IMG/VR virus record: IMGVR_UViG_2703718821_000005
Reading direction: 5' to 3' (one strand)
From: a virus
Lineage: Duplodnaviria > Heunggongvirae > Uroviricota > Caudoviricetes
Length of the DNA stretch: 4,216 nucleotides
Shown here piece after piece: positions 1 to 2,174 of this stretch. The position numbers were made by a program, and so were the translations under genes. The notes under the pieces were generated by a model. The model was not told where the DNA came from and did not search any database. It worked only from the letters and a program-made list of their open reading frames with translations. Position 1 is the first letter of the stretch. The number at the start of each line of letters is the position of its first letter.

Positions 1-83
1 AAACCAGAATGCCAGGAAAAAACAAAGCCTGCCGAAACGGGGTAAGTGCGGGTGCGTTGAGGATGCCTGACACATCTGAGGTG

Positions 84-105
84 GCGAGGGATTTCTCCCT
101 CGCCT
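84..105. other. Perfect 9-bp stem / 4-nt loop hairpin (GGCGAGGGA-tttc-TCCCTCGCC) just 3' of the hok stop; possible hok mRNA 3' structural element
   Basis: Seen in sequence: arms at 84-92 and 97-105 are exact reverse complements. No U-run follows on either strand, so not a canonical intrinsic terminator. Confidence 0.3.
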
Positions 106-113
106 GGTCACTC

Positions 114-269
114 TTACTTCTCAGATTCGTAGTCTACGAAGACAGCAACCTCCGTCTGGCCGGTTCGGATTCGTACCTCGCAGAGGTCTTTCCTCGTTAC
201 CAGTGCCGTCACTATGACGGTTAAACAGATGACGATCAGGGCGATTAGCATCGCCTTTTGCTGCTTCAT
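114..269 (-). CDS. hok: Hok/Gef-family type I toxin (small membrane-depolarising peptide), 51 aa
   Basis: Internal Met of the 114..326 ORF gives MKQQKAMLIALIVICLTVIVTALVTRKDLCEVRIRTGQTEVAVFVDYESEK: hydrophobic N-terminal helix, conserved RKDLCEV and TGQTEVA motifs of the Hok/Gef family. ATG at 269-267 is preceded by AAGGAG about 9 nt upstream. Closest by memory to E. coli HokC/HokD; exact paralog not certain. Confidence 0.85.
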   Translation of the reverse strand: MKQQKAMLIALIVICLTVIVTALVTRKDLCEVRIRTGQTEVAVFVDYESEK

Positions 270-326
270 AGCCTGCTGCTCCTTGCCTTTCGGCGCATAA
301 GAGGCTAATCTAAGTGTGCAAGTCAT
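114..326 (-). CDS. mok: mok-like overlapping reading frame (in-frame 19-codon N-terminal extension of hok; translational coupling ORF)
   Basis: ORF track 70-aa ORF begins MTCTLRLASYAPKGKEQQA and continues in frame into Hok, as in chromosomal mokC/hokC-type loci. ATG at 326-324 is preceded by GAGG about 8 nt upstream. Confidence 0.55.
   Translation of the reverse strand: MTCTLRLASYAPKGKEQQAMKQQKAMLIALIVICLTVIVTALVTRKDLCEVRIRTGQTEVAVFVDYESEK
283..311 (+). promoter_or_regulatory. Putative sigma70 promoter for Sok-like antisense RNA (TTGCCT -17 bp- TAATCT)
   Basis: -35 TTGCCT at 283-288, 17-bp spacer, -10 TAATCT at 306-311, inside the mok/hok coding region on the opposite strand. Predicted start near 318. 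Confidence 0.35.
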
Positions 327-389
327 AGATATGGCCTCAGATTAATGTTAAGCGTCTTGCCAGACGCGTAATGTTAACTGGGGCTTTTC
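318..389 (+). ncRNA. sok: Sok-like antisense RNA (type I antitoxin), about 70 nt, antisense to the mok translation-initiation region
   Basis: Predicted start about 318 from the promoter above. Covers the complement of the mok start codon (324-326) and its SD. Ends in a compound stem-loop: outer stem 334-340 / 378-384 (one G-U pair) enclosing a 6-bp hairpin GCGTCT-tgcc-AGACGC (352-367), followed by TTTT at 385-388. Geometry matches plasmid R1 hok/sok. Boundaries approximate. Confidence 0.4.
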
Positions 390-445
390 TCTATCTGCCT
401 TTTGGTGTTCATGCCTGAGACCGATAGCCTCAAGCACCCGCAGCA

Positions 446-473
446 ATTTTACTTAACTCCCCTTTTCCCACAA
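446..473 (-). promoter_or_regulatory. Putative hok/mok mRNA promoter (minus strand: TTGTGG -16 bp- TAAAAT)
   Basis: On the minus strand, -35 TTGTGG (plus 468-473) and -10 TAAAAT (plus 446-451). Predicted start near 439 gives about 110 nt of leader before mok and a roughly 350-400-nt transcript, as expected for hok mRNAs. Motif-based only. Confidence 0.25.
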
Positions 474-506
474 ATCGTTTTTATCCCTATTGGTAATGTT
501 CTCCCG

Positions 507-523
507 ATGTGGGATTCCCACAT
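507..523. promoter_or_regulatory. Perfect inverted repeat ATGTGGGA-t-TCCCACAT; candidate operator between divergent hok and kinase promoters
   Basis: Seen in sequence: 8-bp arms at 507-514 and 516-523 are exact reverse complements with a 1-bp spacer. The half-site TTCCCACA recurs at 465-472 (overlapping the putative hok -35) and GCCCACA at 575-581 (just upstream of the putative kinase -35). Confidence 0.3.
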
Positions 524-590
524 TGGAACGAATTCAATCAGTTAAAGACTCATCAGAATCTCACCTTTCTAAGTGCCCACAGGTGAGGCA

Positions 591-619
591 TTGCAATAAA
601 AATAGCAAACGTGTATAAA
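591..619 (+). promoter_or_regulatory. Putative sigma70 promoter for the uORF-kinase-phosphatase operon (TTGCAA -17 bp- TATAAA)
   Basis: -35 TTGCAA at 591-596, 17-bp spacer, -10 TATAAA at 614-619 with TG at 612-613. Caveat: the -10 abuts the uORF SD (619-625), so this promoter and SD-dependent uORF translation cannot both be right. Confidence 0.25.
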
Positions 620-631
620 AGGAGGTAATGC

Positions 632-670
632 ATGTTTTTCCAGTCTTATCAATCCATTACTGAGAGTTAA
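632..670 (+). CDS. 12-codon upstream ORF (MFFQSYQSITES) with strong SD; possible leader peptide coupled to kinase translation
   Basis: AAGGAGG at 619-625, 6-nt spacer, ATG at 632. Stop TAA at 668-670 sits inside the kinase SD (AAGGGGG at 669-675). Below the ORF-track size cutoff; found by reading the sequence. Confidence 0.25.
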   Translation: MFFQSYQSITES

Positions 671-679
671 GGGGGCGCC

Positions 680-1474
680 GTGGATCGGTGCGGTAATTAT
701 TTACTTAAAGATGGTCGCAGTTTAGGACAAGGGAGTTTTGGCGAAGTATTTAAGGTTGATGTCTATAACTTAACCCAGACCCACATGACCACATATGCTC
801 GCAAATACTTTTCACCTTGCCCGGACTTTGACAAGACCGCTATAAAAGAGTTGACTGATTTAAGACAGCGTTTTTTAGTTGAGATCAAAACACAATGCAC
901 TCTCAATAGAATAAACTATGATTCAATAGCGCCAATAGTTTTATTTAATACAAATGGTGATAAACCTTATTTTGTTATGGAATTGGCAGAGTGTAACTTA
1001 TATGAAGCCATCCGCAATGGTATGAACTACGCGGAGAGGAAGTCTGCTGTTACTCAGATTTTAAAAGGAATTATCACCATACATGAAAACAACTATATAC
1101 ATCGTGATTTAAAACCAGGAAACATACTTTATTATGCCGATGGAAAGTATAAAATATCTGATTTTGGTCTAGTAAAAGACAGAGATACCTTACGGGCCGA
1201 AATCAAAACAAAATTTAAGCCTAATCACATGGGCACAGATGGATATCGAGCGCCCGAAATACATGATAGCGGTCTTTTTTCTTTTCAAAGTGACATATTT
1301 GCAGCAGGTAAAATTATCACTGATATATATCCCACAGAAAGAAGTGAAAAATTAAAAAGATTGATTGCAAAATGTTGCGCACATTGGCCTGAAGAACGAT
1401 ATCAAAGCACACGGGAGTTACTGGAAGATTTTTTAAAAGTGACGGGGGAGGTAAATCATGAAGAACATAATTGA
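680..1474 (+). CDS. Hanks-type (eukaryotic-like) Ser/Thr protein kinase, kinase domain only, 264 aa, GTG start
   Basis: Glycine loop LGQGSFGEV; candidate beta3 Lys in YARKYF; catalytic loop HRDLKPGN; DFG in ISDFGL; activation segment GTDGYRAPE. GTG at 680 with AAGGGGG 4 nt upstream. AT-rich codon usage. No recognisable sensor or transmembrane domain. Confidence 0.85.
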   Translation: MDRCGNYLLKDGRSLGQGSFGEVFKVDVYNLTQTHMTTYARKYFSPCPDFDKTAIKELTDLRQRFLVEIKTQCTLNRINYDSIAPIVLFNTNGDKPYFVMELAECNLYEAIRNGMNYAERKSAVTQILKGIITIHENNYIHRDLKPGNILYYADGKYKISDFGLVKDRDTLRAEIKTKFKPNHMGTDGYRAPEIHDSGLFSFQSDIFAAGKIITDIYPTERSEKLKRLIAKCCAHWPEERYQSTRELLEDFLKVTGEVNHEEHN

Positions 1475-2174
1475 AATGGCATGTTTTAGCCTAAAACAAC
1501 CCCAAAAAAAAGAAAATGAAGACTTTTATTTACCGCCATCTTTTGATAGCGATTTTAACATTGTCTTTGCAGTAGCTGATGGGGTTGGTTCCTCTGAACA
1601 TTCAATGCTTGCATCTCATGCAGCCATTCGTGGCATTAGACACACGCTAGGCACTTCCTTTTTCTCAATTGAAAGTGCATTTCATTCAGCTAAAAAAGAA
1701 ATTGACAATTTAGATATTAGCACTGCCACAACCTTAACAATTGTTCAGATCAAAAAAAATGAAGTGTTAATTGGTCATTCCGGTGATTGCCGAGTATACT
1801 TCAATAAAAACAATAAACTAAATCAGTTAACCACTGATCAAACGAGATATCAAGAACTCCTTGATTCTGGTGAACATAAATTACGTAATTTAAGAAATCA
1901 TAAAGAACGGCTATCTTCAGTCCTAACGAATGCTTTATCAAATACAACGGATTTGAATTTTGAGTTAATGTCTTTTCCGATTAGCCAGCTAATTTATAAT
2001 GGCTATCTTCAACTCTATGCAATGACTGATGGTGCCTATAAGCATTGGGATGTCAGACCAAGGTTTTCTGAGAAGACAATGCTCTCACCAACAGCTTTTG
2101 CGAGTAGTTTAAGAAAAAGGATTGAGAAAAACATAATGGATGATTACACCTTTATAGGCGTAAAAGTAACCTAA
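1458..2174 (+). CDS. PP2C/PPM-family Ser/Thr protein phosphatase, 238 aa
   Basis: PPM-like motifs: KKENEDFY (RxxNED-like), VADGVGSS (DGxGG-like), GHSGDCRVY (GDSR-like), MTDGAY, C-terminal DDYTFIGV (DN-I/V-T-like). ATG at 1458 with GGGGGAGG 6 nt upstream; overlaps the kinase 3' end by 17 nt. Confidence 0.8.
   Translation: MKNIIEMACFSLKQPQKKENEDFYLPPSFDSDFNIVFAVADGVGSSEHSMLASHAAIRGIRHTLGTSFFSIESAFHSAKKEIDNLDISTATTLTIVQIKKNEVLIGHSGDCRVYFNKNNKLNQLTTDQTRYQELLDSGEHKLRNLRNHKERLSSVLTNALSNTTDLNFELMSFPISQLIYNGYLQLYAMTDGAYKHWDVRPRFSEKTMLSPTAFASSLRKRIEKNIMDDYTFIGVKVT

Follow-up and report, generated by a model that had tools for sequence, protein, structure and literature searches.

The hok/mok/sok cassette is a textbook type I toxin-antitoxin system, and its closest described versions include those of a Stx prophage and of plasmid R1. 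HokW is toxic, SokW expressed from its own promoter neutralises HokW, and mutation of the sokW -10 element removes this protection (Takada et al. 2021, PMC8621323). In the promoter-less construct TAACCT was changed to GAGCCG with primer YO-421, which resulted in loss of antitoxin activity, while the effect of SokW was found to depend partly on RNase III and Hfq (PMC8621323). In R1, whose model supplied the definitions of the ucb and dcb elements, substitutions in the mok Shine-Dalgarno (SD) abolish toxicity and the truncated mRNA requires the 3' stem-loop to be stable (PMC9841398). Here we analysed a 4,216-nucleotide stretch of viral DNA (the window), which very probably carries, as judged from its sequence, an intact hok/mok/sok cassette that belongs to the hokD/hokW subtype and is housed in a lambdoid Stx-type prophage, within the nin region. 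The locus is already known and represents no new system, since its toxin has the same sequence as HokW, which has been characterised experimentally.

A first-pass annotation had described a complete hok/mok/sok architecture at positions 84-473. Every element that it named was recovered within at most 1-2 nt, and the Rfam hok leader model RF01794 matched over its full length (model positions 1-157) with 109.7 bits and an E-value of 3.3e-25, against a gathering score of 59. This 'sok' match falls on the hok-sense strand and therefore marks the hok leader rather than the Sok transcript itself. The extent of the unit required revision, as the functional cassette is larger and includes an fbi element (50-62) and a decayed terminator (approximately 17-42) beyond the annotated boundary. 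The tac, fbi, ucb and dcb elements and the 3' hairpin, all present in the window, were absent from that first reading.

The toxin gene lies on the minus strand at 114-269, as originally read, and encodes 51 amino acids. Its assignment is based on the open reading frame list, on Pfam PF01848 (HOK_GEF; 79.9 bits, E 1e-22, cut-off 22 bits) and on its 100% peptide identity to HokW of phage 933W/Sp5; the four nucleotide differences from 933W hokW are all synonymous. The NCBIfam Hok models scored below their cut-off with this peptide (53.6 against 73) and the PADLOC models gave no match to it. A Shine-Dalgarno sequence, AAGGAG, can be read at 279-284 (minus), where it overlaps the sok -35 element on the opposite strand, and the motif CAAGGAG is nearly invariant in an alignment of 35 loci from Escherichia, Kluyvera, Photorhabdus, Pantoea, Erwinia and an R1-type plasmid. 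The proposed in-frame mok extension to position 326 was borne out: mok occupies 114-326 (minus) with 70 codons in frame with hok, appears in the open reading frame list, and maps onto the annotated mokW of 933W. Its ATG (324-326) is kept in nearly all of the 35 loci. The mok SD, GAGG (335-338, minus), read from the sequence 8 nt upstream of that ATG, corresponds to the GAGG motif of R1. In some relatives an extra T shifts mok out of frame.

Within mok and on the opposite strand, the predicted sok promoter (283-311, plus) consists of a -35 element TTGCCT (283-288), a 17-nt spacer and a -10 element TAATCT (306-311), in agreement with the sigma-70-like promoter originally proposed there. It matches the sigma-70 consensus at 7 of 12 positions and is positionally homologous to the sokW and R1 promoters; its -10 aligns with TAACCT of sokW and, read by eye, with TATCCT of the R1-type locus. 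Positions 1-700 gave no site at threshold in generic sigma-70 and intrinsic-terminator scans. The two promoters of the cassette match the consensus weakly (7/12 and 8/12) and Sok has a compound hairpin; positional homology was used instead. In alignment with functional loci, the sok promoter and the mok start are both free of disruption.

The antisense RNA of roughly 70 nt predicted by the first-pass annotation corresponds to a putative Sok of about 71 nt (318-388, plus), onto which the sokW feature of 933W maps. It would comprise a single-stranded 5' tail (318-332) that covers the mok ATG, a compound terminator hairpin (333-385) that covers the mok SD, and a terminal CUUUU. The predicted fold is unusually stable (-29.7 kcal/mol, z -4.95, with none of 200 shuffles as good). 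The defining parts of a Sok gene, a promoter in mok, an RNA over the mok initiation region and a hairpin with a U run, are thus all present at the level of sequence. The segment that contains the Sok 5' tail and its target (310-333) is the most variable part of the locus, with a mean pairwise identity of 65% among 16 hokD-type loci compared to 87-92% in the flanks, and is likely the specificity determinant of Sok/target pairing.

On the mRNA strand the same region folds into the ucb/mok-SD hairpin (334-384, minus). A direct repeat had been reported around its inner hairpin at 343-350 and 370-377. The repeat exists, while its length and first copy had to be corrected: it is the 9-nt TAATGTTAA at 343-351 and 369-377, the first copy having been placed off by one. 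Together the copies build a single quasi-palindromic helix, one in each arm, pairing through U.G/G.U wobbles on the Sok strand and forming C.A mismatches on the mRNA strand. We also considered TAATGTTAA as a target-site duplication around an inserted hairpin and rejected it, as the copies are arms of one helix and the arrangement is common to all hokD-type loci. The hairpin is more stable on the Sok strand (-28.1 kcal/mol) than on the mRNA strand (-20.2 kcal/mol). It carries an apical extension of about 21 nt, made up of a GC-rich inner hairpin (GCGUCU-GGCA-AGACGC) and UUAACAUUA arms, which is present in the window and in all 16 Escherichia/Kluyvera-type (hokD-type) loci, is absent from the R1, hokC, Photorhabdus, Pantoea and Erwinia loci, and shows compensatory changes in one locus (L035). 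This extension defines the hokD/hokW subtype and places the window within it; the extended ucb/SD hairpin doubles as the Sok terminator hairpin. In the 35-locus alignment the hairpin (helix 5) is 90.7% paired, with GC/AU swaps at three pairs. At its base the ucb or anti-SD box AAAGCCCC (380-387, minus) pairs with the mok SD in the full-length fold, GCCCC (380-384) against GAGGC (334-338), and GCCCC is nearly invariant across the 35 loci. The dcb box AGCCUC (301-306, minus), with which the mok SD would pair instead in the open form, coincides in part with the sok -10 region. Its UAGCCUCUUA is likewise nearly invariant in those loci, and SD/dcb pairing is sterically possible in the window RNA.

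A putative hok promoter had been placed at 446-473 (minus), and the elements expected of one can be read there: a -35 TTGTGG (473-468), a 16-nt spacer and a -10 TAAAAT (451-446). This predicted hok/mok promoter matches 8 of 12 consensus positions, below the threshold of the generic scan. The -10 sits 6 nt upstream of the conserved mRNA start GGGUGCUUGAGG, and in loci of five genera a TAnnnT hexamer lies 6-7 nt upstream of a conserved GGG(U/C)GC start while the flanks diverge. We infer from these sequence features that hok mRNA starts near 439 with the tac element GGGUGCUUGAGG (428-439, minus). The Rfam model begins (position 1) at tac, which aligns with the R1-type start GGCGCUUGAGG and is paired to fbi in the minimum free energy (MFE) fold. 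Downstream of tac is a leader hairpin, CUAUCGGUCU...AGGCAGAUAG (391-427, minus; helix 2), with 92.4% of cells paired and AU/UA/GC swaps among the 35 loci. Its 5' arm can alternatively pair with tac to give a metastable hairpin, and the truncated RNA folds with a tac-local hairpin. Position 422 of the window (leader position 18) is a G, which breaks one pair in the leader hairpin; at least 90% of the 35 loci have T (U) at this position.

At the other end of the mRNA is a stem-loop, GGCGAGGGA-GAAA-UCCCUCGCC (83-104, minus), with a perfect 9-bp inverted repeat. Across the 35 loci this helix 22 is 95.9% paired with four pairs changed on both sides, and by analogy with its R1 equivalent it is expected to protect the truncated, translatable mRNA. 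It is followed by the fbi element CCUCAACGCACCC (50-62, minus), the partner of tac, identified from the MFE fold and from covariation. The MFE fold of 41-439 (minus) pairs 428-439 with 50-62 (z -5.99); folding of the hok leader, together with that of Sok a check proposed in the first-pass annotation, thereby brings the two mRNA ends together in the full-length form. The tac-fbi helix (helix 1) is 89.5% paired in the 35 loci and covaries at columns 4-427 (UA in 20, CG in 12), and in Photorhabdus the pair GGGCGC/GCGCCC compensates for GGGUGC/GCACCC. Beyond fbi, an intrinsic-terminator remnant (17-42, minus) has a decayed stem compared to its relatives. The relatives' terminator, ACCCGC-UUCG-GCGGGU with a U run, folds at -13.8 kcal/mol (z -3.26), whereas the window version, whose four substitutions all fall within the stem, reaches -6.4 kcal/mol (z +1.14). 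This decay leaves the 3' end of the window hok mRNA uncertain. Phage 933W is also without the post-fbi terminator hairpin found in most relatives.

Covariation over the 35 loci backs the tac-fbi, ucb/SD, leader and 3' hairpin helices. Pairs changed on both sides numbered 47 compared to 30.7 +/- 2.8 in shuffles, and 81% of cells were paired compared to 36-42% when the partner was slid. All of the sequence elements of the cassette, their conservation and their covariation are direct observations. [quoted passage not shown] In the MFE fold of the truncated RNA a tac-local hairpin of the metastable type forms and the mok SD is still sequestered, while the published open form would have been expected. 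Constrained folds indicate that the open form, with its tac/ucb and SD/dcb stems, can be drawn at 12.3 kcal/mol above the truncated-RNA MFE, and 3' truncation makes tac/ucb pairing cheaper, at 6.9 kcal/mol compared to 14.3 kcal/mol before. The open form is thus possible rather than favoured, and for the opening step we rely on the published model.

We infer the transcription, processing, toxicity and biological role of the window cassette by homology with R1 hok/sok and Sp5 hokW-sokW. In this model, the weak promoter at 446-473 (minus) would make a stable hok mRNA of about 390-420 nt, in which tac would pair with the 3' fbi and ucb would sequester the mok SD. Because of that sequestration the full-length mRNA would be neither translated nor bound by Sok. 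Slow 3' trimming to the hairpin at 83-104 would remove fbi, after which tac could take ucb and free the mok SD; translation of hok would need translation of the overlapping mok. The stronger promoter inside mok (283-311, plus) would make the unstable Sok RNA of about 71 nt (318-388), which would base-pair through its complementary 5' tail and hairpin with the mok start codon and SD. The resulting duplex would block mok and therefore hok, and RNase III would cleave it. A drop in the supply of Sok, by loss of the element or by prophage induction, would allow the stored mRNA to be translated and Hok to depolarise the inner membrane.

Matches to the locus were found in 4722 of 5426 complete E. coli genomes, where it is annotated hokD, the name that PGAP gives these genes in thousands of genomes. 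In the window hok adjoins a kinase/PP2C pair in the nin region of the prophage. Genes for DUF1627, DNA-binding, DUF4406 and DUF7167 proteins lie upstream on the same strand, and the 99%-identical OkiPb01682 prophage has RusA and DUF1133 genes downstream on that strand, DUF1133 being annotated as Q, prophage antiterminator, in phage Rac. The leader resembles that of OkiPb01682 and the hok coding sequence that of 933W, so the locus looks like a recombinant. The module shared with 933W ends near window position 485, and hok is joined to this kinase in only 32 of the 5426 genomes. Two ideas on this neighbourhood were dropped. The kinase is not Stk of 933W, as it has no 933W match and its best phage match is 39% identical. 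An operator shared by hok and the kinase (TTCCCACA at 465-472 and 515-522) was set aside since two-copy 8-mers often arise by chance and 933W, which is without the kinase, has an almost unchanged hok -35 region.

The first-pass annotation had reasoned that an apparently intact mok and sok suggests a functional locus. The elements are intact, and the inference from intactness to function is unsafe by itself, for intact chromosomal hokA, hokB and hokC reportedly show no post-segregational killing and are unresponsive to rifampicin (bioRxiv 10.1101/2025.08.07.668861). The decayed terminator after fbi and the one unusual leader substitution are additional cautions for the window copy. If the cassette works as a toxin-antitoxin system, it is quite possible that its main role is in lysis and phage release after induction, as proposed for Sp5 hokW-sokW, rather than in stabilisation of the prophage. 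In Sp5, SokW vanishes after mitomycin C, HokW appears about 1 h before endolysin, and the deletion halves phage yield (PMC8621323), an effect that is modest at about two-fold. The window hok is co-oriented with the early-right genes (replication to Q), and N-antiterminated read-through could conceivably collide with sok transcription and deliver extra hok-containing RNA. Position cannot explain the Sp5 result, however, because hokW of 933W lies near attR and opposite to the adjacent late gene.

The same orientation enters a more tentative idea, namely that the HokW-type allele is a doubly gated toxin. A-to-I editing of hokC, hokD and hokE at the corresponding tyrosine has been published (PMC5630033). 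In the window the Tyr47 codon (UAC, 129-131) lies within UACG in a predicted 7-nt loop, CUACGAA (126-132, minus), which is an exact 7/7 copy of the anticodon loop of argQ tRNA-Arg(ACG) and hence a candidate TadA site (Tyr to Cys). The hairpin itself is weak (-5.9 kcal/mol, z -0.44). As a first gate, TadA might edit Tyr47 to Cys efficiently and so control disulfide-dependent toxicity, because this allele, unlike K-12 hokC and hokD, has the codon in an exact copy of the anticodon loop that is closed by a stem. As a second gate, co-orientation with early-right transcription in the nin region might link prophage induction to the release of Hok by way of read-through that would collide with sok transcription. 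From sequence and analogy, we regard the combination as rather doubtful.

It is unlikely that the cassette is intact but physiologically quiet, being transcribed without ever killing on loss of the element and being kept by mosaic phage recombination instead of selection as a toxin-antitoxin system. The behaviour of hokA, hokB and hokC, the decayed terminator, the G at near-invariant position 422 and the recombinant look of the locus would all suit such a state. The distribution of differences from 933W, synonymous throughout hok and with 11 clustered in the first 49 nt of mok, points to purifying selection on the toxin; in addition, compensatory changes keep the structural helices and the near-identical hokW-sokW has measurable phenotypes.

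More improbable still is a cassette whose main job is abortive infection or phage exclusion, perhaps in concert with the kinase/phosphatase pair, so that lysogens are shielded from other phages. The adjacent kinase matches PADLOC defence-kinase models (mad6, 1.1e-37; PD-T4-6, 1.2e-32) and the literature discusses Hok in phage defence, but in a large survey hok was not enriched near defence systems, and PADLOC returned no match for Hok. The module boundary near 485 and the occurrence of the hok-kinase junction in 32 of 5426 genomes make the adjacency look like mosaic chance.

As an apparently intact hok/mok/sok cassette of known type, this copy matters little as a discovery. Its practical use is in annotation. 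Automatic pipelines name the 51-aa reading frame alone, as hokD or 'Hok/Gef family protein', and leave mok, Sok, tac and fbi unlabelled; with an element-level map, intact cassettes can be told from truncations of the K-12 hokD kind. We regard the tRNA-Arg loop mimic, the kinase/phosphatase neighbours, the hypervariability of the Sok tail and the decay of the terminator as modest leads rather than findings.

Comparison with known systems sets the window against hokD (relF) of the K-12 Qin cryptic prophage, which is of the same subtype and lies at a comparable site, in a lambdoid prophage and upstream of rem. It is highly improbable that the window locus is a decayed remnant of that sort, with its toxin frame kept and its regulation lost: the PGAP name hokD and the 93.8% identity from hok start to fbi might suggest this, but the alignment, which begins just upstream of the hok start and ends at fbi, refutes it, as promoter, tac, ucb, mok start and sok are missing from K-12 hokD, where relBE lies instead, while the window keeps its mok start, Sok region and promoter. 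The two also differ at the Hok C-terminus (FTAYEPEE in K-12, FVDYESEK in the window) and in the Tyr loop (UUACGAA and CUACGAA, respectively). The hokC/mokC/sokC (gef) locus of K-12 resembles the window in having an annotated mok in frame with hok, a Sok that overlaps the mok start, and an identical tac. Its identity is about 74%, it is without the apical hairpin extension, and its 3' end including fbi is cut off by IS186.

The hok/mok/sok (parB) locus of R1 has the same order and nearly the same spacing as the window, namely tac, ucb, mok SD, mok AUG, dcb, sok promoter, hok SD, hok, 3' hairpin and fbi. The mok AUG, SD, hok AUG and 3' stem of the window lie 2-10 nt from their R1 positions, R1 mok is likewise 70 codons and in frame with hok, and in both loci the hairpin is more stable when formed by the Sok strand than by the mRNA strand. 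The Hok proteins, by contrast, share only about 44% identity; R1 has a 5' hairpin loop about 16 nt longer and is without the apical extension of about 21 nt, and the window hairpins are about 10 kcal/mol more stable. The R1 locus is plasmid-borne and its post-segregational killing has been demonstrated.

The hokW-mokW-sokW locus of 933W / Sakai prophage 5 (AF125520, Plunkett annotation) is 92% identical in nucleotide sequence over window 41-485, and the alignment of Hok and leader with known loci, proposed at the outset as a check, yields an identical peptide. The differences are a TAATCT sok -10 in the window in place of TAACCT, a divergent Sok 5' tail and mok N-terminus (11 of 15 coding differences fall in the first 49 nt of mok), a nin-region position rather than one near attR, and unrelated sequence downstream of fbi. 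The annotated hokW, mokW and sokW map to window 114-269, 114-326 and 318-388, and the two loci share mok length, the 71-nt extent of Sok, the extended Sok hairpin, tac, fbi and the 3' hairpin.

The 51-codon frame at 114-269 on the minus strand encodes MKQQKAMLIALIVICLTVIVTALVTRKDLCEVRIRTGQTEVAVFVDYESEK, which matched Pfam HOK_GEF at 79.9 bits (cut-off 22) and is identical to HokW of the Stx2 phage 933W (Sakai prophage 5, Sp5), all four nucleotide differences inside hok being synonymous. In the six-frame ORF list this frame starts at 269, within and in frame with the 70-codon mok frame (114-326, minus), which shows 15 differences from 933W, 11 of them within its first 49 nt. Alignment of the hok part only (41-485) with the annotated hokW, mokW and sokW of 933W gave 92% identity and placed hokW at 114-269, mokW at 114-326 and the 71-nt sokW RNA at 318-388, bearing out the coordinates that the first-pass annotation had assigned to hok, mok and the Sok RNA. 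The observation is confirmed and its interpretation as a hok/mok/sok system is supported. A single strong Rfam match was obtained, to RF01794 'sok' (439 to 264, minus, model positions 1-157; 109.7 bits, E 3.3e-25, gathering score 59). Because its consensus starts with GGGUGCUUGAGG and ends at the hok AUG, RF01794 recognises the sense-strand hok mRNA leader and not the Sok transcript. On this evidence the family named 'sok antitoxin' seems to model the hok leader, and strand calls based on it would mis-orient Sok.

In the RNA folding that had been proposed as a check, the predicted hok mRNA (41-439, minus) folded at -149.9 kcal/mol (z -5.99) with tac, its first 12 nt (428-439), paired to fbi, CCUCAACGCACCC (50-62). 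At the foot of a long hairpin, GAGGC of the mok SD region (334-338) is base-paired with GCCCC from the ucb box, AAAGCCCC (380-387), and a stem-loop with a perfect 9-bp stem (83-104) directly follows the hok stop. These pairings and the 3' stem are elements of the plasmid R1 model, in which tac/fbi forms a lock, ucb sequesters the SD and the terminal stem is required for stability of the truncated mRNA (PMC9841398). In mRNA numbering from the 5' end, the mok AUG is at 114 for the window and 116 for R1; the positions of the mok AUG, SD and hok AUG differ from R1 by no more than about 3 nt, and that of the 3' stem (336-357 versus G345-C358 in R1) by as much as about 9 nt. The first-pass annotation had not named tac, fbi, ucb or the 3' stem. 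The fbi element falls outside the originally proposed 84-473, and about 17-473 is the better extent for the functional unit.

Covariation was evaluated on 35 distinct loci (the window, 933W, the OkiPb01682 prophage, a Rac phage, 30 genome-scan loci and an R1-type plasmid locus), with pairs counted on the alignment for the window's full-length structure. Across these loci 81.3% of cells were paired, compared with 36-42% when partners were slid by 1-3 columns; the 81.3% is biased upward since the structure was taken from the window itself. Compensatory counts are the stronger evidence: in 47 pairs both partners had changed, as against 30.7 +/- 2.8 pairs in shuffles, and none of 500 shuffles reached 47. 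At tac/fbi column 4-427, 20 loci have U-A and 12 have C-G, and the Photorhabdus tac/fbi combination GGGCGC/GCGCCC compensates for GGGUGC/GCACCC. G-C/A-U swaps occur at three pairs of the ucb/SD hairpin, and the 3' hairpin has four compensatory pairs.

The Sok region (318-392, plus) folded into a mostly single-stranded tail of about 15 nt and a compound hairpin followed by CUUUU (-29.7 kcal/mol, z -4.95). The direct repeat noticed earlier is present; it is 9 nt long (TAATGTTAA, 343-351 and 369-377), and the two copies form opposite arms of a single helix. Where UUAAUGUUA pairs with UAAUGUUAA on the Sok strand, the two central pairs are U.G/G.U wobbles, whereas the same positions are C.A mismatches on the mRNA strand, making the hairpin more stable in Sok (-28.1 kcal/mol) than in the mRNA (-20.2 kcal/mol). 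A like asymmetry is found in R1 (-17.6 and -10.3) and hokC (-18.8 and -8.3). Together the inner GC hairpin and the repeat arms make up an apical extension, about 21 nt long, that is lacking in the R1, hokC, Photorhabdus, Pantoea and Erwinia loci. Its presence in all 16 hokD-type loci marks it as a subtype feature, and a reading as an insertion scar was dropped. The extension is already part of annotated SokW, and in one Enterobacteriaceae locus it carries a compensatory G-C to A-U change. Among the 16 hokD-type loci the most variable segment is 310-333, recognised by the Sok 5' tail and comprising the mok SD-to-ATG spacer and first mok codons, with a mean pairwise identity of 65% versus 87-92% in the flanks. 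This variability would fit a role in preventing cross-reaction between co-resident hok/sok pairs and suggests that Sok specificity may have diversified among co-resident copies.

The putative sok promoter (TTGCCT at 283-288, 17-nt spacer, TAATCT at 306-311, plus) and hok promoter (TTGTGG, 16-nt spacer, TAAAAT; 473 to 446, minus), both read from sequence, match the consensus at 7 and 8 of 12 positions, respectively. A generic promoter scan placed both under threshold; positional homology supports the two assignments of the first-pass annotation. TAATCT aligns with TAACCT, the sokW hexamer, which the published mutagenic primer changes to GAGCCG on the Sok strand (PMC8621323). The sok promoter region is nearly invariant across the aligned loci, in part because the hok SD and dcb box overlap it. 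For hok, a TAnnnT hexamer lies 6-7 nt upstream of the conserved GGG(U/C)GC start in Escherichia, Kluyvera, Photorhabdus, Pantoea and Erwinia, with divergent flanks.

Several features bear on whether the locus is fully intact. Most relatives have a clean terminator directly after fbi (ACCCGC-UUCG-GCGGGU and a U run; -13.8 kcal/mol, z -3.26). At the corresponding 17-42 (minus), the window and OkiPb01682 retain a decayed remnant with four substitutions, all in the stem, that folds no better than shuffles (-6.4 kcal/mol, z +1.14). This leaves the hok mRNA 3' end, and possible read-through to the downstream Q-region genes, uncertain. The decay is probably tolerated, since 933W carries unrelated sequence after fbi and is yet functional. 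At leader position 18 the window has G (422, minus) where at least 90% of the 35 aligned loci have U, breaking one leader-hairpin pair and gaining one G.U pair in the tac-local hairpin. In the R1 model, 3' trimming leads to tac/ucb and SD/dcb stems (PMC9841398). When the RNA was truncated at 76, its 5' end self-folded into the hairpin termed metastable in R1 with the SD still paired, and the published open form was not obtained. Forcing tac/ucb and SD/dcb cost +12.3 kcal/mol in the truncated RNA; tac/ucb alone cost 6.9 kcal/mol, compared with 14.3 in the full-length RNA. The cost trend is in the expected direction, but the activation step itself is inferred.

The mok frame is in frame with hok in the window, 933W, hokC and R1. 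One extra T (AAAGGTCAAGGAG, alignment column ~177) puts it out of frame in several relatives' loci (L003 1597-1803, L016-L018, L032, L034 and L035), and the Rac phage record annotates mok in a shifted, out-of-frame reading. In-frame mok is consequently not a family constant, which agrees with the published view that what counts is the translation of mok and not the protein made from it.

A predicted 7-nt loop, CUACGAA (126-132, minus, local fold), contains the Tyr47 codon (129-131) and has exactly the sequence of the E. coli tRNA-Arg(ACG) anticodon loop, the natural substrate of TadA. K-12 hokC, K-12 hokD and OkiPb01682 instead have UUACGAA, with no such hairpin in the MFE. TadA editing of the same Tyr to Cys has been reported at 6-40% in hokC, hokD and hokE (PMC5630033, PMC12214031). 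The window's hairpin has little local stability (z -0.44), so it is only predicted that the HokW-type allele is edited (A-to-I, Tyr to Cys) more efficiently.

The stretch 680-2174 (plus) holds two genes, one for a Ser/Thr protein kinase (264 aa, Pfam Pkinase 110 bits) and one for a PP2C phosphatase (238 aa), which share 17 nt and run against the direction of the phage early genes around them. The kinase matches the PADLOC defence-kinase models mad6 (1.1e-37) and PD-T4-6 (1.2e-32); identity with Stk of 933W was ruled out, the best phage-collection match being 39% identical. Among the 5426 complete E. coli genomes, hok was joined to the kinase in only 32. The interval from the hok promoter to the kinase gene contains a near-perfect palindrome, CCGATGTGGGA-T-TCCCACATTGG (504-526), which may serve the kinase module as an operator or may have arisen by chance. 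Its half-site TTCCCACA (515-522) recurs at 465-472, overlapping the hok -35; the corresponding -35 region of 933W, a phage without the kinase, is almost identical.

The entire window is 99.1% identical to the Stx2a prophage of bovine E. coli OkiPb01682, where the matching stretch has the replication genes on one side and the RusA/Q region on the other and so belongs to the nin region. Within 41-485 the locus looks mosaic on alignment: the leader, Sok region and mok N-terminus match OkiPb01682 almost exactly, while the hok coding part agrees with 933W, giving the same protein, and departs from OkiPb01682 in the transmembrane segment and C-terminus. Near-identical E. coli-type loci (L012, L015, L036, L044 and L048) were also found on contigs labelled Veillonella parvula MAG, Xanthomonas pisi, Acinetobacter idrijaensis, 'Candidatus Scatousia' and uncultured Haemophilus MAG. 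Three of these five contigs are at most 3 kb (the Veillonella contig is 22.9 kb), and they most likely reflect contamination or mis-binning and no real host range. Photorhabdus genomes carry numerous hok/sok paralogues (among L020-L043), two of them in tandem on a single contig, roughly 630 nt apart (L029, 1413-1768 and 2042-2386); all have the compensated tac/fbi pair and a short Sok hairpin.

Experiments on the 933W/Sp5 homologue have been published. Induced HokW caused growth arrest, the native locus with sokW under its own promoter was harmless, mutation of the sokW -10 restored toxicity and SokW in trans gave partial rescue, with RNase III and Hfq partly required for protection (Takada et al., PMC8621323). 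In an Sp5 lysogen treated with mitomycin C, SokW vanished and HokW then appeared in the inner membrane; deletion of hokW-sokW halved Sp5 phage yield (PMC8621323). Intactness is no proof of a role in post-segregational killing, as chromosomal hokA/B/C, though intact, are reported without it (bioRxiv 10.1101/2025.08.07.668861). Related copies occur in most E. coli genomes: window 1-700 was matched in 4722 of 5426 complete genomes, at a median of two places per genome and usually annotated hokD. Alignment with hok/sok, hokC and hokD loci, also proposed originally, showed that the window keeps a leader that K-12 hokD lacks. In K-12 hokD the alignable part is limited to a stretch that begins just ahead of the hok start and runs to the 3' end, with relBE in the leader's place, so the window represents the intact form of the truncated K-12 hokD locus and is an allele of an already known, experimentally characterised system.
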